DNA of 61,343 nucleotides, filler included, from Bipalium vagum (Eukaryota): assembly GCA_037834085.1 (NCBI GenBank). It is 3 parts of 3 records of this genome, joined end to end, with 100 filler letters (N's around TTAATTAATTAA, not from the genome) between each part and the next. Parts side by side here need not be neighbours in the genome. Positions count along the whole stretch, not along the records: positions 45,648 to 61,343 come from JBBMKC010151141.1; 2 more parts are not named here. One strand, 5' to 3'. Shown piece after piece: positions 9,001-56,352 of the stretch (position 1 is its first letter; each line of letters opens with the position of its first letter). Position numbers and translations under genes: made by a program. Under the pieces are notes generated by a model. The model did no database searches and had not been told where the DNA came from. It saw only the letters and a list, made by a program, of their open reading frames with translations.

Positions 9001-12000
9001 TACAATACACCATAAAATTTTAAAGCAGAAACATAAAAAAATTAATAATAAGATGATTTCACATAAAATTAATAATCAAGAACATTTCAACTTAAACAAA
9101 TATAGTTGTCACAATAAAAAGTGGCGGTTAGTTTTTATCAATTTATAAAGCAAATAGAATTTAATTTCAAAAAAATAAAATTTGAAAAATATTTCTCATA
9201 AATTTATTTCAATAAAACAAAAAATAATAATATTTAATTTGTCCCCAATTTTTCTCAAGATAGCTTTCAATTCTTCTTGACATGCTTCGAATTAATAACT
9301 TGATAGTTTCAAAAGATATTTAATCCCAAATTTCTTGTATAACTATCTGTAAATGTTTACATCTTTTGGTTGTCTTTTTCGTACTTCATTTTTCATTAGT
9401 CCCCAATTAGATTTTCAATGGGATTGAGGTCAGCGTAAGATATACTATGATAGAAAAATGTTTCATCATTAAATCTCATCTTAAATCCACTTATAATACA
9501 AAAAGTTAGATTATTTAAAATGTATCAATAGATAGAGAGAACAAAAATTAATCAATTTTCCAAAGAGGTATTTTTAAGATATATTTATTTACAACAAGCA
9601 AATATTAAAAATCAACAGTGTGGTGACAGAAATAAAATATTTTTTAATTTTTAAAATAAAACTAAGTTTCAATAATAACTTGGAAAATATGATTTGATGT
9701 ACTAACCTGTACAGGATTGATGTGACTTGTCACTACATTGGCCCGAGTGAAATTACCGAATAAATTATTACTGTACGGCGATGACTTACAAGAGGGACTT
9801 AAATCATTTTCGATATGCGATGAAAACAAAGAATTCGGTGATGATGGACATTTTTTTGACTCGTGTTGTGAGAGCAAGTCTTTTTTCTTTGGTGACTTCA
9901 ACTCCAATTTCAATAAATTATTCACTTCGTTGGAGCAATTTTCATATTTCATTTTATTCTTTTTGTTCGACAGAATCTGTTCCTTGAATTTCTTACAACT
10001 TATCTTTAGCTTTTTATCATTTATGCTTAGAATGTTGAAATTCGCCGGAGGAGAATCAGAATCTAGCCGAGCTGGTCGTTTTCCAGCTGTGGATCTGTTA
10101 GACCTTTTGATGGGAACAATTTGTAAATCATTTGAAGTAAACAGTTTTCGTTTTCGACCTCGTTTTCTTATATGGTCATCAAGATTTTCTGGTTTTGAGA
10201 TGTTTTGTTGGTCTGGTGCCATCATATCAACAGAAAAAGTTGTCAATAATGTTGAAGCTAAAGAATAATTTTCGCCTTCCACAACCGTTACAGTGTCCAA
10301 ATCAGAAGACTTTGAATCAATATTGTTGTTTACGACTAGATTATCCGTTTGAATTGAAAGTTCCAACTGAGTATTAAAAAAAAACTAATTGTCAATAATT
10401 AATTATTATTTTTATTCATTCCCTCTCTTTGTGTCAAACTTCAATTAATATAATCAATATATGGAACCGTTTAAGACTCACATTATGAATTTGAAACTAT
10501 TTATAAAATATTCAAACCAAATATATTTCAAGCAATTTATTTTATTAATTTAGCATTAACATTAAGTAACGTTTATTTATTAACCAATTAAAATTTACAT
10601 TAATATAAAACTAGAAAATCAGGTGAATATTTACATTTTCAGATATGTCCCACAAAGTAACAATTATACTGTTATTGTAATTCATTTCATTGCAGTAGAA
10701 ATACCTGGAAAAATGAAAAATTCCAGTCTACTTATCAATCCATTTAACAAAAGGTGAGCGTTGACCTTTTTAACCTTTGTACTTTGACAATGGACTGAAA
10801 AATCGCTGTGATTATAAAATTGGGAGAAAATTCAAAAAACAAAGGTAAAAATTTTACAAATTTTACAAAGTGAAAACAGAAAGATTCGCTTTGATCTATT
10901 TACACAACAATGGTACCAATTATGATTTAATCTGCAAAGTAAAATCAATTAAACCCCGAGTGGAACCTGATAATTTTAGTTCAATGATAGAGCTTAAAAT
11001 AGTAAATATTTTTAAAAAATCTAAATAGACTAAAAACTATCAAAACCAAAAATAAAAATAATTAAGATGTCATTTTAGGATAATAAAATCAATTGGAAAG
11101 AAAAAAATAGAAAACTTCAGATGGAGATTCGTTTACAAGAGAAACCGATATGAGAATCGATATTAATGAAGAATATTTCCTTATAATAGGAAAAAAGAAT
11201 TTCAAATATATTATTTTGAACGGTATATAATAAATATTATTTTTAAGGTATATCTTGTTGTTAATGATAATGTTCGCTTTTACCATTAAAAAAAGAAAAT
11301 CGTATTAAATCAATATTGACTGAAACTAACTTACCTTTATCTCTTCATTTTGCACTGATTCGTTTTTAGTATCAGCATCTTCTTGTTTCTCGGCTTCATT
11401 TTTCAAAAATATTCTTGTGTTGTCACAGGAATCATTTTGTTGAAATTCTACATCACATTTCTCATCTCCATTTCCTACACAATTATTCATTTCAGCCGTT
11501 TCCGTTGTTGATACACTACAATTGCTTTTTACTTCTTCCAATTGCCTACTTTCTCCGTCAAATGTTACTGAATCTTGACTTTTGACTTCGAAATTCTCCA
11601 CATTCGATTTGACTAACACTTCGTCATTTAGAATGGTCGATGGTCGTGATCGAAGATTTTCTCTTTCAGAATTTAGAATATTAATCCAATCTGACTGACC
11701 CATTTTCAACGAGAATTTTGTAAGAGCTTTTCCAAGAAATTCATTATTCAATACACTAAATCCCAAATTCGGAGGAATATTACAATTATCATTAGAATGA
11801 TAATCTGTGCATTTACAACTATTTATTTCAGATGATATTTTCGGTTTATCACAGTTTGGTAAAAAATTTACGAGCTGCCATTGAATTTCTTGGGGAAACT
11901 TTATGAAATTTTCTTGATTGATTATTTCCTGAAATTACACATTTAAAATTTTTCCCCATAAATAAAGATCAGTCAATATAATTAACCTTGACGAAATATT

Positions 12001-22535: not shown

Positions 22536-23066
22536 TTAATCATCATAGATGGGTTCCTTATTAATACATTTTGTTAGGAATTTAAACATGTGTCTGTAAT
22601 AAGAATTACAAACATCAGCGCCTATTAAATTTATTACGTTGTCGATCAATCCAAATAAATCTTTTTCATTTTCAGGAAGAGCTTGCCTGATGCTTTGTTT
22701 CCATTTTGAGAATACGTTCTCTATAGGGTTTAGAAAAGGAGAATAAAGAGGCAAAAACCATACCCTATGACCCCCTTCTTCTACCATTTCAAGTATGCCT
22801 GTCGATTTGTGGAATGGAACATTGTCCATTATGATTATCACAGATACATGTTCTCGAATTAAATCTTTTGCTATTAATTCGGTTATAAACGTCTGAAATG
22901 TGATCGTATTATATGCAGTCGTCTGTGCATGATAATGGACAATTCCATTTTTATTCATTGCGCAACAGACGGAGATGTTACGTGACCTCAATCTCTTTCC
23001 ACATAATGATCTTCCTTTTCTTGAGCGCATGGATATATTGAAGCCTACATCATCAACGAAGAACAA
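22536..23066 (-). mobile_element. IS630/Tc1-like DD34E transposase catalytic domain (N-terminally truncated)
   Basis: ORF motifs FVDDVGFN, IIMDNVPFHKS, LPLYSPFLNPIENVFSKWK; 34 residues between the second D and the E. Confidence 0.9.
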
Positions 23067-23554
23067 TTTGGATTTATCATATAATGATAAGGTATAAGAA
23101 AAGTATGTATTTGAAATGAGATTACAAAAATTTGAAATGAGGTTATAAACCCTGTAAATATTTTAATCAATGATGAATTGTCATTTTTGTTCCAAAATCT
23201 TTGTCATTTACAGTACAATAGTTGAGATCGTAGAGGTTTTTGAAAGCTAAAGATATGCCACCATTTTTAAATACTTAGTGCTGTGACCAGCGAAAATTGA
23301 ATTCATCATAATTGATATATAGATCTTGAAGTAATTATAATTTGTATATCTCCACAAAAGTTTTTTCATTTTCAGTTTTAAAGGTTTGGCATAAAATTGA
23401 CATATTTTTATGGATTTGTTTACATCTTTCGTTCATACAAAAATTTGATGCACTGACTTTCATCGAAAAAATTGTCCTTAATTCATATATGGATGGAAAG
23501 ATCTATATTGTCTTACTTTAACATTTTTAAAAATGTTAGTTATTTCATTTAAAT

Positions 23555-25139: not shown

Positions 25140-26494
25140 TTATTTAATTTGTAATTTATTGTAATTTGTCAATATCGAATTTGAAATGTTTTTCGGATAA
25201 TACTAATGCTAGTTCTCTAATAATGTCATTATGTCTTTTGATTCGGCCCTCTTTGCTGCAGTGGCAAAGTACATGTGCTTGGGTTTCTGTGAATTTGCAG
25301 CCCCTCCTACATAATACATTTCCTCCTTCTAGAGCCTTATAAGGCGAATAATTCAGCTGTATTATATTATTTTGGCATTTCACGGCAAATATCCAGTCGT
25401 GGGATGACAGATTTCCATTTGTTATGATTTTATTGGATAACGGATCCATTGCAATCATTTCTCCTATTTGGCCTTGTGATTTGAGGTTGGTCCAAAGCTT
25501 GTAGTAGGCAATGCCGATTAATTCGTGTAAATAGCCGCAAATTTTAATCTTCGACAAGTAATCAAAGTAGGCAACATTTGGATTTGTGATCTCAGACTGT
25601 TTTTCAACTTCTATTCCATTTTGGCTCACGCTGGATTTGACTTGAATTTTGAATTTGCGCTTTAAATCTGTAATACTTTTTCTAATCTTCGTCCACCAGG
25701 TGGCCACGTGTTTCTCTCCATTTAGCCAGTCAAGTGCAATATGGATGTCCGTATGGTTATTGTTATTACGCATTTGAGCTGTACTGATAATTTTGGAACA
25801 GATTAGATGGCAAAGTTGGGTATCTGAGGATGTGAGCATGCAAAAGGTATGCATAACATTCTGCACCATGTAATCATCTACTGCTGCGACGATTCCTAGG
25901 CCTCCAAGCTTAGCATGAGCATTAAAAAAAAGAATTATTGAGAAGGTTGCTCGGTATGTTCAGCATAATTTTTAGCAAGTGTCGGACCTTCTTATCGTAG
26001 CCAATATTATCCTCTATTCCTACCCCTTGTATTCCATTAGGTGAGGAGAGGGTTTGTATGTTGAAAATTTTGAGCGATTGAATTTTCTGAGCTGGAGTCA
26101 GAACGCTTTTGCATATTTTGTGAAGGTTCCTAACGTTTTCTTTGAGAATCTCATTAATATTTTGACGCATGTTTTTTCCAAAGGGCATCCCGAGATATTT
26201 GTATGTATCTGCTTTTGTAATTGATGGAATAGTCACAGCTTCAATCATCAACTGGTTCTGTGGGCTAAGATTGTGGTCGTAGTAACCAAATTTATTTGGC
26301 CGAAATTGCAGTCCAGCCCATTCTGTAAGCTTCTCAACTTTCAACAAGGTTTCCTGAATGTTTTCAAAAGTTTTTCCTAATAATACGATGTCATCAGCAT
26401 ATGCTAGTGATGATATATTCATTCCGTGTAAGTCATATCCCTCACCAATTTGTTCAATTTCTCGAAAGATAAAGTAGACTGCCAGACACACCAA
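25140..26494 (-). mobile_element. Non-LTR retrotransposon fragment, RLE-endonuclease group (R2/NeSL/Utopia-like): RT C-half, thumb and CCHC knuckle
   Basis: ISSLAYADDIVLL, YKYLGMPF, LTPAQK; frameshift near 25920; then AKLGGLGI, LCRRGCKFTETQAHVLCHC and RHNDIIRELA. Truncated at both ends. Confidence 0.9.
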
Positions 26495-26559
26495 ATTTTA
26501 ACTATGAATTAGCTTTAATATATTTTTCAACTTTTAATTCTATTTTTAATATTACTAAA

Positions 26560-28252: not shown

Positions 28253-28352
28253 NNNNNNNNNNNNNNNNNNNNNNNNNNNNNNNNNNNNNNNNNNNNTTAA
28301 TTAATTAANNNNNNNNNNNNNNNNNNNNNNNNNNNNNNNNNNNNNNNNNNNN
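28253..28352. other. Artificial contig linker (44 N + TTAATTAATTAA + 44 N)
   Basis: Exactly 100 nt, with a core giving stops in all six frames; identical structure at 45548-45647. Confidence 0.95.
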
Positions 28353-33780: not shown

Positions 33781-34700
33781 TTGTGATGCAAAAGTTCGTA
33801 CTCAAAAAATCTTATAAAGAAGTTTTATATTCTAAAAAAGGTTTTATCGTTATTTGCAAAATTTAAGTTACCTTTTATTTAAGTTTATTTGAGTAGAAAT
33901 TTATCATTTGTTTAACTATTAAAATATTGACTCTAAGTTTTTTGAGTTTCAATAAACAATTTTACAAATCTGTGATTAAAATGCTTTCTACAAAATTTGA
34001 GATAAGAGTGTTGTTGCGTCACTATTTAAAAAGAGATTTGAGCACAATGGATGCTTGCAAGGAGTTATGCGAGTTTGAGGGCGAAGGAAATGTTGCTCAG
34101 AGGATTGCAACAAAGTTTTTCAATAGCATCAATGATGAATTTGAACTTTAAAGACAAGCCACGTTTACATCAATCTTCACTGATGAGGGATGATGAATTG
34201 ATTGCCACCTTGAAAGTTCATGCGATTAACTGTGCGATTATACTGGTGTACATCAAACAAATGTCCTGAGACATTTACATCAACTATATTGTATTCACTA
34301 AAATACACGACAAATCCATACTTCATAAGTAAAGAGCAAGCGAAGAACAGAGTTGATATGTGCAAAAAACTGCTTGAGAACCCGCAAGATGAGGACTTTT
34401 GGAGGCGTATTGTGACATCAGATGAAAATTGGATATACTTAGTCAACCATAACCGATAAAAATGTGGGGTTCCAAGAGATCAATATCCATTTTCAGTCGC
34501 CTGTCAATGCAGGTCTTCCAGGAAGGTCTTGCTGTGTGTTTGGTAGAATTTTGAATGTACTCTTCATTATGAACTGGTTCCAAATGGTAAAGCCATAAAT
34601 ACAGAGCTTTATTGCCAGCAACGTGATTTTGTTTATGATGCACTTAAGCTGAAATATCTTGTTCTTCTTCGTCAAAAGCGAGCATTGTTTCACCAAAATT
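33781..34700 (+). mobile_element. Degenerate mariner, 3' truncated
   Basis: MLSTKFEIRVLLRHYLKR...ACKELCEFEGEGNV (mariner HTH), RVDMCKKLL, DFWRRIVTSDENWIY; TIR-like ttgtgatgcaaaagttcgtactc after TA. Confidence 0.9.
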
Positions 34701-37700
34701 GTTTCTACAAAATCTCCTTTACCTCAACACATTTATTTCAACATTTTCCAAGCAATTTGATAACTTTGTTTTAATGACTCTCACTAAAGCTTGCAAAATA
34801 AGTATGTAAAATATCATTTATTTTTTTGATTGTCACTAAAACGCTTTGCAGATAGGAATTTTTGAGACTTTGGAAAAGAAAGAAGCCTGATAGAGCTAAG
34901 TTTTTGAATTAGATAGAATTGCAAGGAAGTCATAATTCAATTCATTTAATTTTGATATGGTCAAAAGCTTTTGTTAAAATTATTCTTGAGAAGAACTTTG
35001 CCATGTTATTCGGAATATAAATTTTCTTAAATTTTTATTCTGAGCTTTAACATAATTTTCAAAAAAATGGCTCAGTAAGGATTGGCTATAATTAGTAAGA
35101 TTAGTTTTAAATAGTCAGAAGGCTCAATTCGAGAAATTGGGTGGTATACGTCTACTGCTCTGTATAAACTTTTATTTGTGCTTGCTTTAAGTTATTCAAA
35201 AAATAATGAAGAAAGAATCGATAAAAGATAAGGAATTATATTATTTTAGAAACATCTAATCGATTTCCTAAAATCAGTGTTAATTAATTAATTAATTAAT
35301 TGGTAATAAAAGGAAATACTTTTCATCATTTTCTTTAGAATGCCTTACTCATTTTTAAATGTCCTCTTGGACACTACACCTTGATTGTTTCTAAGCCACA
35401 AAATATAAATTTTAAGACCAGGACCTCTTCGGTTATCATAAAACCAATATAAACCTATCTGTGAGTATAACTCATAGGTAGTTAGGTCAGTAAAAGCAAC
35501 AACTTACAATATTACTTTTTATGTATAGCCATGAATGAAATATGGACCTATTATTATGATTCTGAATTGCCAGAGGAACGATTACAATAAATCAAGATGG
35601 TTACCCTCGAAAAAAAACTATTTAGTACATAAGATAGGCAGAAGTTACATTTAATTTTATACTTTAATTAGACTAATACTGCACCTATGATTACTAGATC
35701 AATATTAAAACAGGGCCAATTGAAACAAAACCGAAATTAATAGTTGAAACTCATTAATAATAATATTCTTATTTTTTTTAACATGATTCATTTAGAGTTA
35801 TTATTTTATATCATTTTAATTATACTGGATTAATATTATCATTATGATTATATATTATAAGGATTTTTATCAAAAAGTGAAACACGTCAATAGTTTTCAG
35901 AGCATGGGAATCGTCAAATAATTTTTCTGGATAAAAGTTCTGACCAATGAGAATTGGATGAAGACAATTCTTTGGAGACTGAACTGATCAATGTCAAACC
36001 TTTCCACTTTTCATCTGCAATGCCCTCCATGTCTAGCTGGAGAGTCTGTGGTTCCATGGATTTTTGAAAATATTAATTAATTGTGGCCTCCATGCATTTT
36101 TCGACTGGATTTGTTTATTTTTCCTTCATTTCCATATTTGCTGGTAAGATTTTGCTGACCGTAATTTATTCAATAATTCTTAAATATTATAAAAATATTA
36201 TTAATTATAATATATAATATTTTTTAAAAATCTAATTGATGTTTTTTTAAAAGTTAAGGATATTTTTTGAAAGGCTGTTTTATTTGCACATTTAAAATAA
36301 TAAAATAATAATAATAATAAAATTTTTCATGTAACAGGTTATTTTAAATCATTAATTGAAATTTTGTTTTAATTAATTTATCCATAATTCATTAAAATTT
36401 TTATATTAAGTATTTGTTTTAATAATTATTAAGTATTAAATTAATAATACTGATAATTTAAATAAAACACAATGTATCGAAAAATTAATGTAATTTCCAC
36501 ATTTCTATTGTTTAAAGTTATTGTTCAAAATGTTGTGGATCGCACAAAGTGAGAAAAAAAATTTTCCATATTGATTTGTTCGAGAATTTTAAATGTTAAT
36601 TTAACCAATTTTAAACCTTTTTTTAAACCTTTTTTTATAATTCATGAAGAAGCTTACATTTATAATACTTCCTCATTTGGTGAAATGTATGAAATTGATA
36701 AAGATCTTTTGAAACTTCTGCAATACTTTGACATGGCCTTCCTTCAACTCACACCACAACAATTCATGATCAAGTGAAACATATTGCTTGTCATGGTCTT
36801 AGTAAACCACCAGGATGGCTATCTCAAGTCTTCTATTGATATTTCCACCAGATTTGGAGACATTATGATCACTTTGGTATTTATAGGAATATGTATTAGG
36901 GTCATCTCTTTATCATACGTTAAGATTTGATATATTCACCTTTCAAGTAAAACAGTTAAATGGGTAAATAAATATTTCATATGATAAATAAAATCTGATA
37001 AACAAAATGACATGGTTTTCTTTAAAACATGTGCAATATTTTAATTAATAATATTTTTAATTAATAAATAATAAAACTAATAATAATTGACCAGGATAAA
37101 GCCAAAAGTTTATATTTTTCATAAATATTGCACCTGAATCCAGAATTCAATATTTTCATACAGCAAGTATTGAAAATTATTAATTAAAATGTGATCCAAA
37201 TGATTAATCAATTAATATAAAATAATAAAAAGAATTATAAATTTTTAATGAGATGGAATAGCTGTGGAAATATTTCATAAAAAATACTGAAATTCTTTTT
37301 CTGGCGAAAAAGTTTTTTAATTTTTAATTTTAAGTTATTAATTAAATGATTATAATATAAAATAATAACTGAATTAAAATAATAAAAATGTTTGAATTAA
37401 AAAAGATTAAGAATAAAATTCAAGAGAATATTAATTGAAAATGAAAAAATAAATAAAGGGTGAAAATTAATATTGGTGTGAAATAAAATTGAATATTTTG
37501 GAGAGCTCTAATTTAAAAAAAATTACTAAAATAAATAAATTAATAAAATAAAAATAATAATCATTTCAATAAATGAATAATACCAGAGAAGAGTTTATTA
37601 AATTATTTAAATAATATTAAATTTATTAAATACAAAAAACCAACCAGTTGAACTATTTCACATTTTATATTATCAATAAGAATGATTAAAAGGAAAACTT

Positions 37701-43899: not shown

Positions 43900-44520
43900 A
43901 AAAAAAGTTAATTATTCAGTTAAGTTTTCATATTCTACCTTAAAATGAGAATTTTGCAAATCGAAAATCGCTATTTTTGTATTTCTCGGTAAGTTCGTGC
44001 TGTGCCCATATTTCTGCTCTGCTTGCTTTTCCAATATCATGTAAATGTCGACGAATTGTTTCTCTATCATAACTGAGTTCATTGTTTGTATCCAGAGTTT
44101 GAGGTGGATTTTCTTCCATATCATCCTTGATAGCATTCATATCTACAGTTGATGGTCTGCCAGATCTAGAGGCATCTCAAAAATCAAAATTTCCGTCTTT
44201 GAACATTTTGAAACCACCTGTCATTTCATCATACCGGAATTGTATGGATAGATTTTGTTTATTGACTTAATTGCTTCTGATACCGTTTTCCCATACCGTT
44301 TCATACTGCAAGCAATTGCGTATGTGATACTCACTTGCTTTTTTGTCTGTCATTTCTACAAATTTAATGTTTTGTATTAAATTTCTAAAATAAAAAATTA
44401 TTAATTACGTATATTTCATAAAATCGCCAAATTACAAATGATTTTAATACAGTAAAACAAATCTATATTCAAATTAATATTAAATATAAAAAACGACATT
44501 AGATTTGAGACGAACTAATA
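43900..44520 (-). mobile_element. Mariner 5' fragment
   Basis: Minus strand: FKDGNFDF..ASRSGRPSTVDMNAIKDDMEENP..ELSYDRETIRRHLHDIGKASRAEIWAQHELTE (WVPHEL motif). Confidence 0.85.
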
Positions 44521-45547: not shown

Positions 45548-45647
45548 NNNNNNNNNNNNNNNNNNNNNNNNNNNNNNNNNNNNNNNNNNNNTTAATTAAT
45601 TAANNNNNNNNNNNNNNNNNNNNNNNNNNNNNNNNNNNNNNNNNNNN
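45548..45647. other. Artificial contig linker (44 N + TTAATTAATTAA + 44 N)
   Basis: Identical to the linker at 28253-28352. Confidence 0.95.
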
Positions 45648-45993: not shown

Positions 45994-46485
45994 ATGACAG
46001 AAGCAATAGTGGAATTCTTTTGTAAATATGGTATAAATACAACTACAAAAAATGATTTAATTAATATTGCAAAAGATTTAGATAAGCTTTTAAAAGTTTT
46101 TATGAAAGATGAAAAAATTAAATTAAAACATTTTAATTTTGATATTCCTTTAATAATTGAATGTCAAAATTTGAAAGAAGAAGAAATCTATTGGCTTGGA
46201 TATTATAATTGTGTTTATTTTGACTCTTATGGTTTACCTCCTTCTTCAAGTATGTTACTTGAAAGTACAGAAGTATTATATGAACGAACTATAGTATTTA
46301 ATAAATTAAATTTTCAAAGTGAAATGGATTTGTTGTATAGTGAACAATTAACTTTATGTGTTTTATATCAAATTTATAAAGAAGTTTCATTTTCTAATTA
46401 TTGTTCGTGTAAGCAAGATGAGAAATTTATAGAAATTCTAGAAGAGTTACAAAATGTTATTTTAGAAAAATTAAAAGAATTTTAA
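45994..46485 (+). CDS. Adenain-like (Polinton/adintovirus maturation protease) homolog, intact ORF, catalytic His and Cys substituted
   Basis: 163-aa ORF with VFMKDE, EIYWLGYY (HW to YW), YFDSYGLPP, FQ, LYSEQL (CG to SE). Confidence 0.7.
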   Translation: MTEAIVEFFCKYGINTTTKNDLINIAKDLDKLLKVFMKDEKIKLKHFNFDIPLIIECQNLKEEEIYWLGYYNCVYFDSYGLPPSSSMLLESTEVLYERTIVFNKLNFQSEMDLLYSEQLTLCVLYQIYKEVSFSNYCSCKQDEKFIEILEELQNVILEKLKEF

Positions 46486-46515
46486 ATTTTAAAAATTAAA
46501 TTTTTTTAAAGAAAA

Positions 46516-46960
46516 ATGAGTAGATTTTCAAAAATTAAAAATATAAATATACTTTTAGAATTTCTGTAAATATGGAATTAACACAACTTCAAATTTTGAT
46601 TTAATTGATATTGCTGAAAATTTAGAAATGCCTTTAAAAGTTTTAATGAAAGATGAATTTAAAGAAAAAAGAATAAAATCTGAAGTTCCATTAATTATTA
46701 TATTATATATAATATTATAATTAATTATTATCAAAATACAAATCAAAAAGGAATTCATTGGGTTGGATATTACAAAAAATTTTACTTTGATTCCTATGGT
46801 TTACCACCACTTGAAGATTTAGAGTACTGTGGACAATTATCTTTATATGTTTTATATAAACTTTTTCAGGAAAAAGTTTATATGAGGAAATTTTAGAAGA
46901 GTTGGAATATGTTATTTTTAAGAAGTTGAAACTAAAAATTAAAAATTTTAAATTAAATTT
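46516..46960 (+). pseudogene. Second, tandem adenain-like protease copy: catalytic residues retained but frameshifted and internally deleted
   Basis: CKYGINTTSNFDLIDIAENL..VLMKDE; after an AT-rich insertion, YQNTNQKGIHWVGYYKKFYFDSYGLPPLEDLEYCGQLSLYVLY...EEILEELEYVI. Confidence 0.8.
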
Positions 46961-47228: not shown

Positions 47229-47487
47229 ATATTTTTTTCTTTTTTAGTAGAAGTATACAAACAATTATTTTTAAATTTATCAACTTGTTAGTTGGGTAGT
47301 TTTTAAATCAAATAAATAAATCAAATATTTTTTTAGTATAAGTATACTAAGAAATATTTTTTAAATTGTAGAATTGTTAGGTGGGGACATTAAATGTCGC
47401 CACCTTTCATATCGTTAAATCAAATATTTTTTCTTTAGTATGCGTATACTAATAATTATTTTTTAATTTGTTAAGTTGTTAGGAGGG
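47229..47487. repeat. Three ~65-bp direct repeats, each with a palindromic core TTAGTAT-N4-ATACTAA, plus a GC-rich hairpin
   Basis: Cores at 47244 (degenerate), 47333 and 47435; each unit ends ttgttag.(t/a)ggg. Hairpin aggtggggacat-taa-atgtcgccacct at 47379-47405 (11/12 pairs). Confidence 0.8.
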
Positions 47488-47569
47488 TTACATATTTTAT
47501 TTTTTATTAAAAAATGGTAGAAAATTATTTTTGTAAATATTGTAAAAAATACATTTCAAAAAATAATAA

Positions 47570-48780
47570 ATGGAATCATGAAAAAACTGAAATACATATT
47601 CAAAATATAAGTGTAAGTAAGGAAGTAATCTAAGTAAGGAATTAAGTAATCTAAGTGATGTGAAAATAGCAGATGATAAATTAAGTATTTCAATAAATGA
47701 TTCTTTAATAAATAAATTAAACAATGAAATAAAAGAAAAAACTAATGAAAAAAATCATTATAAAAATCTTAATAAGGATAAAGATAAAAAAATTTTTCAA
47801 TTAAATAATATAATTAAAAATTTAGATGAAACTTAAATTAATATTCATGAAGAAAATTATGAAAAAATAAAATATAAATTAGAAATACAAAATTTTAAAA
47901 ATAACTATTAAGTAACTATATAAAAGAAAATACTATAAAAAGAAAAAAGAAAAAAATAAAGATAAATTAGAAAATTATTTAAATAATTATAAAAGAGAAT
48001 ATAATGATTTACAAAAAAATATGAAAATTTATCTATTAAAACTGAAAGATTAGAAAATTTATAATCTAATAAATCTATTGAAACAGAAATTAAAATATAT
48101 AATAAAGAAATTTATTATCTTAAAGGAAAATTAGATAAGACTTAAGAACTTATGAAAGTAATGAATACACATTTTAATTTTCAAAATATGAAAAAACGAT
48201 TGGTAAATTTGAAGAAAGAAAGTTTCTTAGAAATTGAAAAAAATAAAAACGGAGTTGAAAGATTACAAAATAGAATATTAAATACTCATGGACAAATTGA
48301 TAGAATAAATCAAACAGAATTTAAAGGAAAATCTATTGCACTACAAACAGAAGTTATTGGAAAAAAATTTATAAAGATATCATGAAAATAAAAAATTATT
48401 CAAAGAAAAAAATAAACATATTTAAGGGATGAAAGCAAACAATGCTCTTATGAAACAAACTTTCATAGAAAAATATAAAGAAAAAAAATTATCAAGTGAA
48501 AGAATGGAAGAAATTAATGAATTTTCATTTTGGATGATTAGGTACTATGAATTACAATTTCAGTATTATTTTGTAAATAATAAACTAATTAGAGATGATT
48601 TTAAAATAAGAGGAATAATAAAAGTTGATAATAAAGAAAAAAATATTTTTTAAACTATGATAAAAAATTTATTAATAATGTAAAAGATTATTTATATAAT
48701 AAAATTCCAAGAGATGAAATAATGAAAAATATTTTTAAAAGTTTTGCATACTTGAAAATTAATTATTTTTAAAATATTTT
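47570..48780 (+). pseudogene. Decayed K/E/N/I-rich (coiled-coil-like) intronless ORFs, probably Polinton-like cargo
   Basis: Strong A-rich strand bias and broken frames (ORFs 48152-48385, 48429-48653); same composition and strand as the protease genes; no recognisable motif. Confidence 0.4.
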
Positions 48781-49712: not shown

Positions 49713-50820
49713 ATATAGTTAAGATAAATTGAAAAAATATGAAACAATGCGGTGGTTATAATAATATGACGCATACTATACGCTTAAAAGAGAAAAGTGT
49801 CAAGAAGGAAAATCATCCAAAGAATATGTTTAAATTCTATTAAAGGCTTTTGCTGGTGATAGCATCTGTAAAGCAATGGTTATTAGGGAAAGTAACAATT
49901 CTAGCTGGTTTCAAAATATAATCAAACAAAAAATTATTATAATAAATAAAATATAAATATAAATTATTATTATAAAAAAACATAGAACCATGGATAACAC
50001 CTCTCATATCTATAGATTATTTGCTGCAGTTAAATCAAGAAATGTTTCGAGAAAAGAGAAAGTTTCTATTATAATATATTTGTAATGCAAAGTGTCATCC
50101 ACCTGTATCCAACTGTATCTTGAGCTTGCAGTCTTTGGATAATGAAATCATACGTTATATGAAGACAATATATATATAATTAATGTTAATAAAAATGACC
50201 CTATCCTCGAATTTCATTGAAAATTCATCACAGTTCATTAGGAGTATTAATTTACTGGATACAATAACAATTTTAACAATTGTTTTAAAAGAAATACATA
50301 CGAGTAGTGTTGAAAATGCTTTTATAAAGCTTGAATTTCATATTTTAGAAGATAACATGAATCATCATATTTAGACGCAGAGGCCGAATATATGTTAGAA
50401 GCTGTTGATTTTGTAAACGTTTCCTTCCTCTAGAAGAAAATGCAAACGATTCTGATATCTTGATTAATTTTTCGTTTATTTAATAAAATAATTAGTATAA
50501 AGTATTGTAACTGAATATCCGGAAATTTGTGTAATCTGTAAAAATAAAATTCTTTGGTCACTTCCAATTCCGGCTTTGACACATTTCACTGTAGTGGGTA
50601 ACAATTTTTTTTATTTAATTTTAATAATCTTAGATTTAATTAATCCTAAAATATATATTGTGTTTATGTAAAATTTTTATTTTGCATATCAAAATTAATA
50701 TTTTAAATACTCTTGATTAATTAAAAAAAACCACATTTGTTTAAGCGTTTGATTCTTAATATAATTTATTTAAATTATTAAAATTGTTCTCATAATTTTT
50801 AATTTAGATAAATCTTAGTA

Positions 50821-53486
50821 ATGGATAATTTAATTCCAGTAATAAATAAATTACACGATGTATTCAGTACTATTGAAAAAGATATAATTAAATTACCTCA
50901 AATAGTAGTTATTGGTTCTCAAAGTGCAGGCAAAAGTTCTGTTTTAGAAAATATAGTAGGTCACGATTTTCTCCCTAGAGGCTCAGGAATTGTTACTCGA
51001 TGTCCAATAGTTCTGCAACTTATATTTACTCCAATCACTAATGAAAATTCACCAAATCCTTATGGGAAATTTTTACATACTAAGGATAAAGTTTTTGTTG
51101 ATTTCAATGAGATTAGAGAAGAGATAGAAAGAAAAACAGAAGAAATAGCTGGAAGTGGAAAAGTAAGAAAAGTATTGAAGTTTTTATGTGTAATATTTTA
51201 TTCAGTGTGTAGTTGATGAACCAATAAATCTTAAAATATACAGTTCTCAAGTACTAAATCTGACTTTGGTAGATTTACCGGGTATGACAAAAATTCCTAT
51301 ACAAGATCAGCCTGAAGATATTGAAGAACAAATTCGGAGTTTATGTATCAAATATGCTAAACAACCGAATTCAATTCTTTTATCTATTTCAAGTGCAAAT
51401 AATGATTTGGCGAACAGTGAATCACTAAAATTGGCAATGCATTTAGATCCAGAAGGTAATTTTATTTCCATTTTCTTATAGTATTCGAAATGCTGTCAAT
51501 GGCCAATTTTAACCTGCTAAGTTAATCTCTACATAACAATTTAACAAAAGGTGTAACTGATAGTCCGTTTAAGCAATATACCACCAATAATTCTTAATAA
51601 TCGCATTTTAATCTGAAAAGACAAAGATATTCTACTGTATGTTAATATGAAATAAGAGATCAATAATTTATTTGGTATACAATTTGATAAATAACTTTAT
51701 TTTCACTTAATTTAATTTTCTATTAATTGAGTTGGCTTTCTTTTATTAAATAATAAATAGGTTCATTAAAAAAATTATTCTATATTAATAATAAATATTG
51801 ATGTAAATTGATGTTTAGGCATGAGGACGTTTTGCATCCTGACAAAATTGGATTTAATGGATGATGGAACAGATGCGAAAGACATTCTTTCTGGATACAC
51901 GAATATAAAAAATTTCAAATTGGGAGTGATTGGTGTAGTCAATCGATCTCAGGCCGATCTTAACAATCGCAAATCAATTGCCGACGCATTAGAGAGTGAG
52001 GCTCAGTTCTTCAGAAAGCACTATCCCTCATTGGCCAATCAGAACGGCACACCATATTTGGCCAAGAGATTGAACGAGGTAATTTTCGATTTTACAAAAC
52101 CTTTCGTTTTGACTTTTCGTTCCAGCTGCTTATGAAACACATAAAAGCATCTCTACCAAATTTGAAAACGGAAATAAACATTCGGATTAAGCAATGCACA
52201 ACGGAGCTGCAAGCCTATGGAAACGAAGTAAAAAACAAGGTAAGCGAAAGTTGGTCGAGTTCCTCTCGTTATTTTTGTATTTATTTTCGCAGAAAGAGCT
52301 TCTAATGGAAATGATCAATCATTTCAATACCGCATATTGCAACGCCATTGACGGAAACTCTCGCAATATCAATACGGCAGAACTTTGTGGTGGTGCTCGG
52401 ATCGGTTACATATTTTATTCCATGTTTCACAAAACGATCGATGAAATCGATTCACTGGGAAATTTGAAACCAAAAGCTATTTTGACTGCCATCCAGAATG
52501 CCAGCGGTCCTCGTTCATCGCTTTTCGTTCCGGAATTGACATTTGAGCTATTGGTCAAAAATCAAATTTCTCGATTAGAAGAACCGAGTCTGATATGTAT
52601 TGATCTAGTGTTGGACGAAATGCAGAGAATCATTCAGAACTGCGGCACGCACGTATGAATTTGTTTTTGATGCATCACCATAAAAATGTTATTATCGATT
52701 ATGATTGATTTTTATTTAGAGGGAAATGGAAAGGTTTCCAAGGCTTAGTGAAAGAATTATCAACGTCGTCACGAATCTGTTGCGACAACGTCACGAGCCT
52801 ACCAACGAAATGGTGTCCAGTCTCATTCAAATCGAGTTGGCATTTATCAACAATCGTCATCCAGATTTCGATACGTCTGGTGCTTACGGAAAATCAATGG
52901 ACCATCAAATATCGAAGCATAATCACAACAAAAAAATGACCGTCAGTGAAATGTCTATAATAGACGTAAGAGATTGGGCTCTGTTAAAAATTATTGATTT
53001 TTTGTTGTTTTTCCAATTCAGGATGACTCCTCTATCAGACGCTATGAGAACATGAACGAAAAAGATATTCGAGACTGTAAATTGATAGGTTTGTTTTTTT
53101 TGTGTGAAGTTGTATTGATTTCAATTCACTCTATTTATCAATCACATCAATAGAGAATCTAATCAAGAGTTATTTCGATTTGGTACGAAAAACCATCAAG
53201 GACTTGGTTCCGAAGACAATCATGTGCTTTCTGGTGAACTATATCAAGGAAAATTTGCAAGGAAAATTAGTTCTGGAGATTCTCCGCGATGATAATGTCG
53301 ATTATCTATTGGAAGAGAACGCTGATTTTGCGCAGCGTCGCAAGGAGCTTAAGCAATTATTAGAGGTTTGTTTTTTTGAAATCCTATTCCACCGGGAAAT
53401 TATTCTTTTATTTGTATTTTGTCGTTTAGAGTCTACGTAAGGCCAATTGTATTATTAGTGAAATCCGAGAGACACAGGTGCGCTGA
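50821..53486 (+). CDS. DNM1L: Dynamin-related protein 1 (mitochondrial/peroxisomal fission GTPase), 9 exons, 635 aa
   Basis: Exons 50821-51162, 51206-51455, 51819-52078, 52126-52239, 52293-52652, 52720-52965, 53022-53088, 53154-53365, 53430-53486 sum to 1908 nt. Motifs [44 protein letters not shown] ending [11 protein letters not shown]. No PH or proline-rich domain. Confidence 0.95.
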
Positions 53487-56352
53487 CCAGAGCACTTTCT
53501 AGGTGCTCGTTATAAATTATTATTATTATTTAGCGGTAAATAAACATATTCGACTAATCAACGTTACTTTTAATGATTCATAAGAATAAAAGATGACAAT
53601 AGACAGTGCTGTTTGAGTTTGATCTCTCTCTTTCACTGTTTCTCTGAATTCTTCAATCATGAATATGAGATTGAAACGATTGATATTATTAATAGTGTTA
53701 TAATCAATACTTCCTTGTGATGTATGATTTCTCTTTACTAAAAAATATAGGCAAATTTTTCTTAAAATATTTCACATATATTATCGATGATATATATCAT
53801 ATATTTTAATTAAAACGATTATTTGTGTTTTGATCGATTTGAAAGTTTGTTTTCAGAGTTTTTTATTAGGATTGTTGATAGTTTTATTATTTCATCATCA
53901 GGAATCGACTAATATTATCATTATCATAGTTCACAACTTACTCGTCTCTGTACATCAATAGTTTATGGCATTCTCAACGAGTTTCCTTGAAGTGTTGAAA
54001 ACAAGCTTCCAATAACAGATTAAACATTGTGATTTTGGAATGACTTTATTTTAAAAACCTTGACAGTGACATAAACCGATGGTGATCCGTTGATGGTGAA
54101 TCAGGACAGTGTGTGAAATTACTGAGGACTTGGAATTTTTAATATATAATAATTTTGGTGAGCTTAGCGGTAGAGTTACATGATTTTTATAAGGAAACGA
54201 CGTTTTGGGATTACGATTCAACGGTTATGCCACACGCAGTGTACAGCATTATCTTCATTAGAAGGATAAATTATGTTTTGAGTAGAAATAGACCTGGAAG
54301 GTCGTCAAGGTTTAGTCTTACTGACCTTGAGATAGGAAATCTAGTTCTCATCCCTATGTTATCACATTAGAAAAGGTGCTGCTTGAAACCTTGTCAGGAC
54401 TCTTTCATCTGAAGGAAACCATTTTCTTTGTTGGAGTCCCTTTCACATTTATCTCAAATGTGTACAGGCAGGTATCATGAACTTGCTCTTCACATTGTGG
54501 GAAGAAGGAGATCTGATTTAATCAGTCTTTAAGGCATTTAAATTGAGCTCCTTTTTTCTACCAAGCGTAATTTTAATGTAGACATCTTCATTTTTCAACT
54601 TTTTGAACCTTCTTTAATGTCTCATTACAACTTTGAAATGCTTTTTTGTTGAAATAATTTTTTCGAAATTCACATCGATAATAATGTTCTTTAGTCCGAT
54701 TGGTATTTTTAAAATCATACAGACAATAATGTAAAATACTTTCTGACTTGGATTAGCTGGAAAAAAAATTTTGTTTAAAAATGACATTATTTGCTTGATA
54801 ACTGAATTTATTTTGTCTATTGATTTCATCTTATTGATAACTATGAGTTTGAAACACGATTATATTTAATTGTCTATGGAAAAGAATACCGACTTCAAAT
54901 AGAAGAAAACTAGAAGTTTTTTATTTGACTTGACTGTGTGGACTATCTAATTCAGTTACTATCATTGGTTGAATCGATCTAACTTTTGTTCTGACAGTTT
55001 ATATTAAACTTTAGTTTTGAGTAATCGATCTAGTTTCGCATTTTAGTTAATTTGTATAGTTAAGTTTTTAAAGACACGAGTCAATAAATCTATCTAATGA
55101 TATTCTAGTGCATTATGAAATAATCGATTTAATCTGTGTTTCATTTATAATTTTATCATATTGAGATTTTTTATTTGAAGATGATCAACAAAGTTTTACG
55201 AAACAAAAAATTATGAATTCTTAAAAATATTTCCACCTTTAAATTAAAAATGCACAAATTAAAAGTTTAATTGTTTAAAGAAATGATAAAAATTAGGTTG
55301 AATACTTTTTTTAGCTGTCATTAGAAAATTTTCACAAAATTACCGAGATATATTGCAAAAAGTTTTAAATCATTAAAGTTTTTTACAATCATTTCATTTG
55401 TATCATTTGTCACTGATTTCAGAACAACAATTTTGTAATACATAAAGTATATTTTGGAAAGTTTTCTTAATTTTTTCAATATTTAATGTATCAACTTTAA
55501 CCTGACTCAAACTCTTAAGTGGTGCAAAATAACAAGAATCAATAAAACAATAATTTGTATTTATATCACTATAGCACGCAAAAATCACAATATTTATAAC
55601 AAAAACGTCAAACTCAAAAGGGAATCACAAGGAATAATAACTTAAATTTTCAAAGTAAATGGTCAATCAAATGAAATAATATGTAAAGCTTAAAAATAAA
55701 CAAAAACAATCTTACAAATTGTCTTCGTTTAAAATTCCTGGGCCATCAGTCGATCCTTTCAAGTTATTCAGACATAGTTCTCTTATGGGGAACTTAAACA
55801 AAATCCCAGTACTGAACATATTATGAATATACAGTTTAGTCCGGATATTACGAATCACCTATTCCCACAAAAAAATTCGTAATATCCGATTTTTCTGATT
55901 AACCGATTTACTGGTTCTTTTCCTATTACGTAAATGAAAACAACTTTTTCTTTGTATAATAAAAAAAAGCTACAGAATTAAGACATTTTAGTTATTATCA
56001 ACATTAAAATAGTGGTCCAAGGTTGTTTGTTTAAGGGATAAAATGGCAATTTTTGTTAGAGCACAATAAATTTTATCTATATTCTGAAAATCTATCTATA
56101 ATTTTAATTTATTAATTTTTCTAAAACAAGACTATTAATAATCAGTACATAAAAGATTAGTTGCACCGTTAAAAAATTGAAAATTATTATTATTATTTGT
56201 TAACGTGAAACTAAATATAATATTATAGAAATCATTATTATAAAGCTAACTAAACAGATAACCATATTTAGTTTTTAAGCTATAATTTTATATACCAAGT
56301 ATGAACATTGATTTTTATCTTCATATCGAAAATTTTGGATATCCCTTTAATA

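Follow-up and report, generated by a model that had tools for sequence, protein, structure and literature searches.

How does a protease gene come to lose both its catalytic His and its catalytic Cys and keep an uninterrupted reading frame, beside a tandem copy that has these residues in a broken one? This question is raised by a pair of adenain-like genes in the genome of Bipalium vagum (GenBank assembly GCA_037834085.1), within a window of 61,343 nt, by which we mean the whole stretch of DNA that was analysed. The original prediction offered two answers, either a viral module of one active and one inactive protease or a decoy retained by the host, acting as a substrate trap or a dominant-negative restriction factor.

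The protease pair

The pair and the sites of catalytic loss are as follows:

45994..46485, + strand: copy 1 (P0001), an adenain/vUlp1-like gene forming an open 163-codon ORF, without the catalytic His and Cys but with Asp77 and Gln108 (ORF and alignment)
46189..46191, + strand: Tyr66 (TAT) in the catalytic His column, within the stretch ECQNLKEEEIYW where relatives have NYQNxNQKGIHW (alignment)
46339..46344, + strand: Ser116-Glu117 in the catalytic Cys-Gly columns, Ser116 being AGT at 46339 (alignment)
46486..46515, no strand: AT-rich spacer of 30 nt (sequence)
46516..46930, + strand: copy 2, a broken protease gene with its ATG at 46516 and His, Asp and Cys kept (alignment)

Re-reading of 45994-46485 agrees with the original description of copy 1 as an uninterrupted ORF of 163 codons in which GIHW has become EIYW (Tyr66) and YCGQL has become YSEQL (Ser116), with YFDSYGLPP intact (Asp77). 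Measured against an active protease, copy 1 lacks the catalytic His and Cys and has the acidic third residue and the oxyanion Gln (Gln108); Trp67 is also retained. The glycines beside the His and the Cys have both become Glu, and the near-invariant Asn56 and Asn19 are altered. Copy 1 itself gave no match to Pfam Peptidase_C5, an atlas search with it returned no usable match and PDB sequence searches returned nothing relevant. Its structure, predicted by AlphaFold from an alignment of 3 rows, has a pLDDT of 41.

The two copies are 77% identical by column, with a 544-nt spacing at the 5′ end. An assembly duplication as the source of the pair was ruled out by this level of identity together with the distinct indels of each copy. 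A T-run/AAAAATG start context is common to copy 1, copy 2 and the ORF downstream of them. Copy 2 has the motifs GIHW, FDSYG and YCGQL, with the catalytic codons at 46756, 46789 and 46828, and the claim that it retains His, Asp and Cys amid frameshifts and a deletion is borne out by three frame breaks and the loss of 54 nt. The breaks comprise a frameshift near 46564 with a stop at 46567, an insertion at 46690-46725, an AT-rich inverted duplication that also shifts the frame, and a frameshift near 46875-46886. The middle break looks like a real mutation because of its inverted-duplication insertion; the outer two, located within or next to homopolymer runs, may reflect slippage or errors of sequencing. 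The 54-nt deletion, in frame at 46816, takes out the conserved oxyanion Gln segment, so that copy 2 lacks one catalytic element, frame breaks aside. In its present state copy 2 has no open frame with His, Asp, Gln and Cys.

Genomic setting and decay of the neighbouring genes

The immediate surroundings of the pair contain three further features:

45548..45647, no strand: assembly gap, a run of N with the TTAATTAATTAA linker some 350 nt 5′ of copy 1, leaving the left context of the element beyond view
47236..47488, no strand: three imperfect 62-nt direct repeats, 76-79% identical, with spacings of 89 and 102 nt, non-coding (repeat search)
47514..48772, + strand: decayed ORF with an N-terminal C2H2/U1-type zinc finger followed by a Lys/Glu/Asn-rich, probably coiled-coil region (Pfam, composition)

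The window is AT-rich and eukaryotic in character (GC 0.26), and the pair sits in a stretch of about 2.9 kb with a GC content of 16-21% and a strong positive GC skew. The N runs with the internal linker, at 45548-45647 and at about 28253-28352, are an artefact and no biological repeat. None of the Polinton hallmark genes (pPolB, rve integrase, A32 ATPase, double-jelly-roll capsid) was found in the window in a Pfam scan of about 111 of the 138 ORFs of at least 60 aa, a scan which decayed genes could escape and which meets the N run 350 nt upstream of copy 1; one sub-threshold DNA_pol_B match lies 18 kb from the protease pair. There were no terminal inverted repeats and no target-site duplication among the longest repeat pairs listed, for a fragment whose ends are undefined. 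Since no hallmark gene was found in the window, the label of Polinton for this fragment is one that we infer.

The 62-nt repeats, with a core of TTTTTAGTA..GTATAC, lie just upstream of the zinc-finger ORF, and the repeat region is possibly a regulatory or origin-like part of the element. The zinc finger itself is above its Pfam cut-off (zf-U1, E 2.8e-6, 27.4 bits against a cut-off of 22). No homologue of this ORF was found among 101 longer candidates for one piece of it, nor in the 80 metagenome loci described below; another piece gave a weak SET-domain look-alike, below recognition level. About 5 frame switches and 5 stops are read in the ORF from codon-position composition, without a homologue. 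Taken together, copy 2 and the downstream ORF carry about 13 breaks in 1679 nt (frameshifts against stops, 8 vs 5), 10 of the 13 being placed without a homologue. The chance that copy 1 would show none is 0.02-0.04, or 0.10-0.13 if just 8 of the breaks are real, a calculation made post hoc. We regard the unbroken state of copy 1 after the death of the element as a weak hint of retention by the host.

Family and relatives

A search of 5.8 billion proteins returned closest relatives matching copy 1 at E 8e-31 and 1e-28, a similarity far beyond chance. Ten intact relatives (P0002-P0011) were found, with 49-53% identity to copy 1; GIHW is present in all ten and YCGQ in the nine that are full-length. 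A profile search yielded 4081 representatives; its listing covers the best 150 of them. Among the 11 members of the alignment, two gave a weak Pfam match to Peptidase_C5 (best E 0.0067), and the cut-off for this family was passed by a more distant relative in locus L017. The relative in that locus, at 9962-11098, is a fusion in which the adenain domain is followed by a C-terminal region that gives a weak LRAT-like match.

The AlphaFold model of the intact relative P0003 (pLDDT 90) resembles the protease of a MELD virus (E 2.4e-4) and the adenain of an adintovirus (E 8.4e-4). Against clan CE structures it matches adenain 1nln at E 4.5e-3 with a probability of 1.0, and no PDB match reached E 0.001. 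Moreover, a Pfam scan of ten of the relatives' loci (drawn from the 11 loci L001-L005, L008, L017, L026, L031, L038 and L040) found genes for a double-jelly-roll capsid, an A32 ATPase, an rve integrase or pPolB in the majority, and none of these in L002, L004 and L031. These fold matches and Polinton-type gene sets uphold the original assignment to an adenain-like family, of clan CE and adenain/vUlp1 type. Judged from its nesting among intact relatives in the tree, copy 1 is a member of the adenain/vUlp1 family by descent. The fold of P0003 and the gene neighbourhoods of the relatives together argue that the pair descends from a Polinton-type maturation protease.

Timing of the divergence of copy 1

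In 103 aligned codons the two copies differ with a dN of 0.23-0.25, a dS of 0.36-0.47 and an omega of 0.5-0.7 (bootstrap 0.26-0.99). When the differences were polarised by 8 close relatives, 28 were specific to copy 1 and 3 to copy 2 (p=5e-6); of the rest, 8 had both states among the relatives and 2 had neither. A derivation of copy 1 from an active protease by two point changes was ruled out by these 28 differences. The tree has branch lengths of 1.22 for copy 1 and 0.10 for copy 2, and places the two as weakly supported sisters (95/47) within an 8-member clade (100/95) in which all the others have GIHW and also YCGQ wherever that region is covered. In a smaller tree, with branches of 1.0 and 0.13, the sister relation of the copies is unsettled. 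The first 45 residues of copy 2 have 89% identity with P0003, an intact relative.

Since a dead host gene would drift at the neutral rate, copy 2 appears to have been conserved through most of the change in copy 1, and most of the divergence of copy 1 would fall in a time when selection still acted on copy 2. The one-sided divergence would place both the duplication and the loss of catalysis in a live element, before the fossil stage in the host.

Selection on copy 1

Purifying selection on the protein of copy 1 as a whole was not detectable by invariant-column, BLOSUM62 or top-column tests. Copy 1 differs at 17 of 53 columns that are invariant in 7 close relatives and, at 21 of 58 variable ones, carries a residue that the relatives do not show (p=0.69); the active relatives each differ at 1-6 invariant columns. 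Its 23 single-base changes have a mean BLOSUM62 score at the level expected under neutrality (P 0.39-0.45). All of the five most conserved columns of the family (Cys116, Gly64, Asn56, Gly117 and His66) are changed in copy 1, and 14 of the next 15 are kept. With the reader-selected His and Cys set aside and classes pooled, this pseudo-enzyme pattern amounts to changes at 4 of 18 top columns (p=0.35); only with the classes split does the test reach p=0.025 and 0.039.

On the branch of copy 1, omega is 0.65-1.05 with dS split evenly between the copies and 0.32-0.52 with all dS assigned to copy 1; the cases tried span 0.32-1.05 and, with no DNA outgroup to fix it, depend on how dS is assumed to divide. 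With the even split, the branch is thus largely in line with the dN/dS of about 1 that the original prediction had named as counting against it.

The reading frame behaves otherwise than the protein. Copy 1 contains no stop, against 4.0-7.3 expected under neutral drift (P of none 0.0007-0.018), an expectation which holds even with the KEEE run counted as a single event; this run may be one slippage event. By a second count, 4.5-8.2 stops would be expected. Relative to its relatives or to copy 2, copy 1 has three net length changes, all of whole codons (+1, +8 and +4). Compensated frameshifts inside copy 1 were ruled out, as the other frames score at background against the relatives. Because no stops were found where 4-8 are expected, and because the length changes are of whole codons, selection likely maintained the frame. 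The locus was picked for its open frame, which builds a selection effect into the stop test; despite this the combined odds favour a kept frame, and the claim that the open frame exceeds plain decay is sustained.

Search for further copies of the dead form

Among listed proteins, the catalytic Cys is present in all 137 that cover its column and the His in 152 of 159, and none of the 159 has lost both. The best 80 of at least 217 confirmed metagenome loci, found with scan patterns that did not demand His or Cys, have the His in 80/80 and the Cys in 73/73 of those covered. All three catalytic residues are present in each of 19 viral loci. Pooling the best 80 metagenome and the 19 viral loci gives 99, two sets that overlap in part, with a few contigs probably in both: the His is present in 99/99 and the Cys in 92/92 covering its column, none has lost both and none has a tandem second protease copy. 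Of the 80 metagenome loci, 29 have flanks of at least 600 nt on both sides and 74 have them on one side. The 99 are distant relatives, the 80 metagenome ones having 26-54% best-segment identity.

No second copy-1-like sequence was found in database protein searches (including the best 150 of 4081) or in viral contigs, and no orthologue of copy 1 stood among the database proteins listed. Viral contigs were scanned with three queries, namely the family alignment, copy 1 and the altered-triad clade described below, and no locus was confirmed; no genomic context for that clade was found. Among public sequencing runs, one contained a fraction of 0.38 of the region's words and no RNA run was listed, a result that counts neither for nor against expression. 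The original prediction had looked for a clade in which YW/SE is fixed and always paired with an active gene. No such clade emerged from the 159 listed proteins or the 99 distant loci, and the listed relatives largely keep HW and CG.

A different alteration does recur within the family. Five of the 159 listed proteins combine His to Asp with Asp to Ser and keep the Cys and Gln (G[ST]DW...YFSSY). These altered-triad proteins are P0024, P0032, P0035, P0036 and P0100 (and P0074), from ENA and JGI contigs; their frames are open and 49-54% identical to P0024, and the tree includes four of them, which group together as a clade at 100/97. Judged by sequence, they appear to be stronger candidates than copy 1, whether for a pseudo-protease that has been conserved or for a catalytic site of variant type. 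Two further members, P0081 and P0096, have single His to Tyr and His to Arg changes respectively and retain the Asp and Cys.

Origin of the pair

We lean, with slightly better than even confidence, towards copy 1 being a duplicate without catalysis and under relaxed constraint, which went on being translated next to its working twin in a Polinton-type virus and survives today as a fossil. The protease gene would likely have been duplicated in tandem within a still-active Polinton-type virus, where copy 2 likely stayed the working maturation protease and copy 1, having lost its His and Cys, likely remained translated as a loosely constrained, non-cutting protein. The target of selection would most likely have been a weakly constrained accessory protein, and less likely translation itself, for example through ribosomes carried on to the start of copy 2, 30 nt downstream. 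Once the element had fossilised in the host, copy 2 and the downstream ORF would have decayed, copy 1 most likely being spared breaks by chance so far. The case concerns one locus, for which we infer the timing, the selection on the frame and the viral setting. A plain pseudogene, drifting neutrally after the duplication with its frame open by luck, is unlikely. It would fit the equal hitting of invariant and variable columns, the neutral BLOSUM scores, a branch omega compatible with 1, the failure to find any copy-1-like relative and the choice of the locus for its open frame from a very large scan. However, it would leave the missing 4-8 stops and the three of three in-frame length changes to chance, next to neighbouring genes in which frameshifts are no rarer than stops (8 vs 5), and a useless 0.5-kb duplicate would need to have lasted in a compact virus over a dS of about 0.2.

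The viral answer in its stronger form, a conserved two-gene module fixed across a virus lineage in which an active protease is accompanied by a dedicated dead partner (a regulator or virion protein), we consider quite unlikely. Its timing fits, the divergence (28 vs 3) falling inside a live element with the frame kept. Moreover, the five most conserved columns changed while YFDSYGLPP, Trp67 and Gln108 stayed, and a separate altered-triad clade persists in the family. The fixed paired clade was not seen, however, the double loss occurring in 0/159 listed proteins and 0/99 loci and a tandem copy in none of the best 80 of at least 217 metagenome or the 19 viral loci, although these loci are distant, and the amino-acid pattern is near neutral. 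The other answer, that the host kept the integrated copy 1 as a dominant-negative or restriction factor against Polinton-type viruses, seems likewise quite unlikely from the comparisons made here. Exaptation of Mavericks for defence has been put forward as a hypothesis in the accessible portion of one study (PMC9683012), and copy 1 is unbroken next to the 13 or so breaks of copy 2 and the downstream ORF. Yet the p-value for those breaks is post hoc and most of them were placed without a homologue, and loss of catalysis is unlikely to be an invention of the host because most of the divergence of copy 1 predates the decay of copy 2. A substrate trap, moreover, should keep its cleft, and this option is unlikely because the glycines beside both catalytic residues became Glu; other near-invariant residues are also changed and the protein has evolved at a roughly neutral rate. 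A combination of the two, in which a Polinton-type lineage had a tandem active and dead protease, the latter a regulator or particle protein, and the host has since kept the dead partner alone as an interfering factor, is doubtful but deserves to be named. The relaxed, dead viral duplicate remains our preferred explanation.

Relation to known systems

Polinton-type viruses have been described with one vUlp1/adenain protease. The protease of Polintons (Mavericks, adintoviruses and MELD viruses) has the same His...Asp...Gln...Cys layout as the relatives described here, and likewise copy 2 except for the Gln. The present locus differs in its two tandem copies, the first of them without the His, the Cys and both adjacent glycines, and in its setting, a window in which no gene for a polymerase, integrase, ATPase or capsid was detected. 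In the adenovirus protease the triad consists of His54, Glu71 and Cys122 with Gln115 in the oxyanion hole, and vUlp1 is given as a Polinton gene, according to the available sections of PMC4246237 and PMC11161782, respectively.

The nearest precedent, in the same sections of PMC11161782, is the inactivated vOTU protease domain in the pPolB of adenovirids and bidnavirids, where a cysteine-protease fold is kept without catalysis. Like copy 1, this domain is a non-catalytic relative of cysteine proteases in the same virus group. It belongs, however, to another protease family, lies inside a polymerase and is kept across whole families, whereas copy 1 is a separate gene, a duplicate known from one instance, whose amino-acid changes are near neutral. 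The accessible text of PMC8502044 and PMC9683012 portrays degraded endogenous Mavericks and adintoviruses in animal genomes as fossil pieces interrupted by stops and frameshifts. Copy 2 and the downstream ORF resemble these, but here the most diverged gene is the one that stays open. A dead, frame-kept duplicate of vUlp1/adenain was not described in the accessible text of the literature searched (including PMC11161782, PMC8502044, PMC9683012, PMC4246237 and 10.64898/2026.10.13.758929), the supplements of which could list such cases.

If copy 1 was a selected pseudo-protease, it would show small viruses making accessory genes out of core genes; if instead it was retained by the host, copy 1 would be a candidate for a defence against Mavericks derived from a protease. 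At present it is one fossil, and the argument that its frame was kept is statistical.

Other features of the window

Beyond the protease fragment, the window contains an intron-split dynamin-like gene, pieces of Ras-family, PDZ, ASXH and SUEL-lectin genes, and relics of Tc1/mariner and reverse-transcriptase elements, contents that suggest an animal host. The transposon relics lie at 22536-23162 (-), 25156-26497 (-), 33900-34770 and 43915-44176 (-), and consist of Tc1/mariner-type transposase pieces and one reverse-transcriptase relic (DDE_3, E 3e-25; RVT_1, E 4e-7; HTH_48 and Transposase_1 weak), that at 43915-44176 being judged by eye alone. The dynamin-like gene, at 50812-53490 (+), has Dynamin_N, Dynamin_M and GED domains, and its 3′ half has a GC content of 0.39 (52001-53000), against 0.25-0.29 in its 5′ half.
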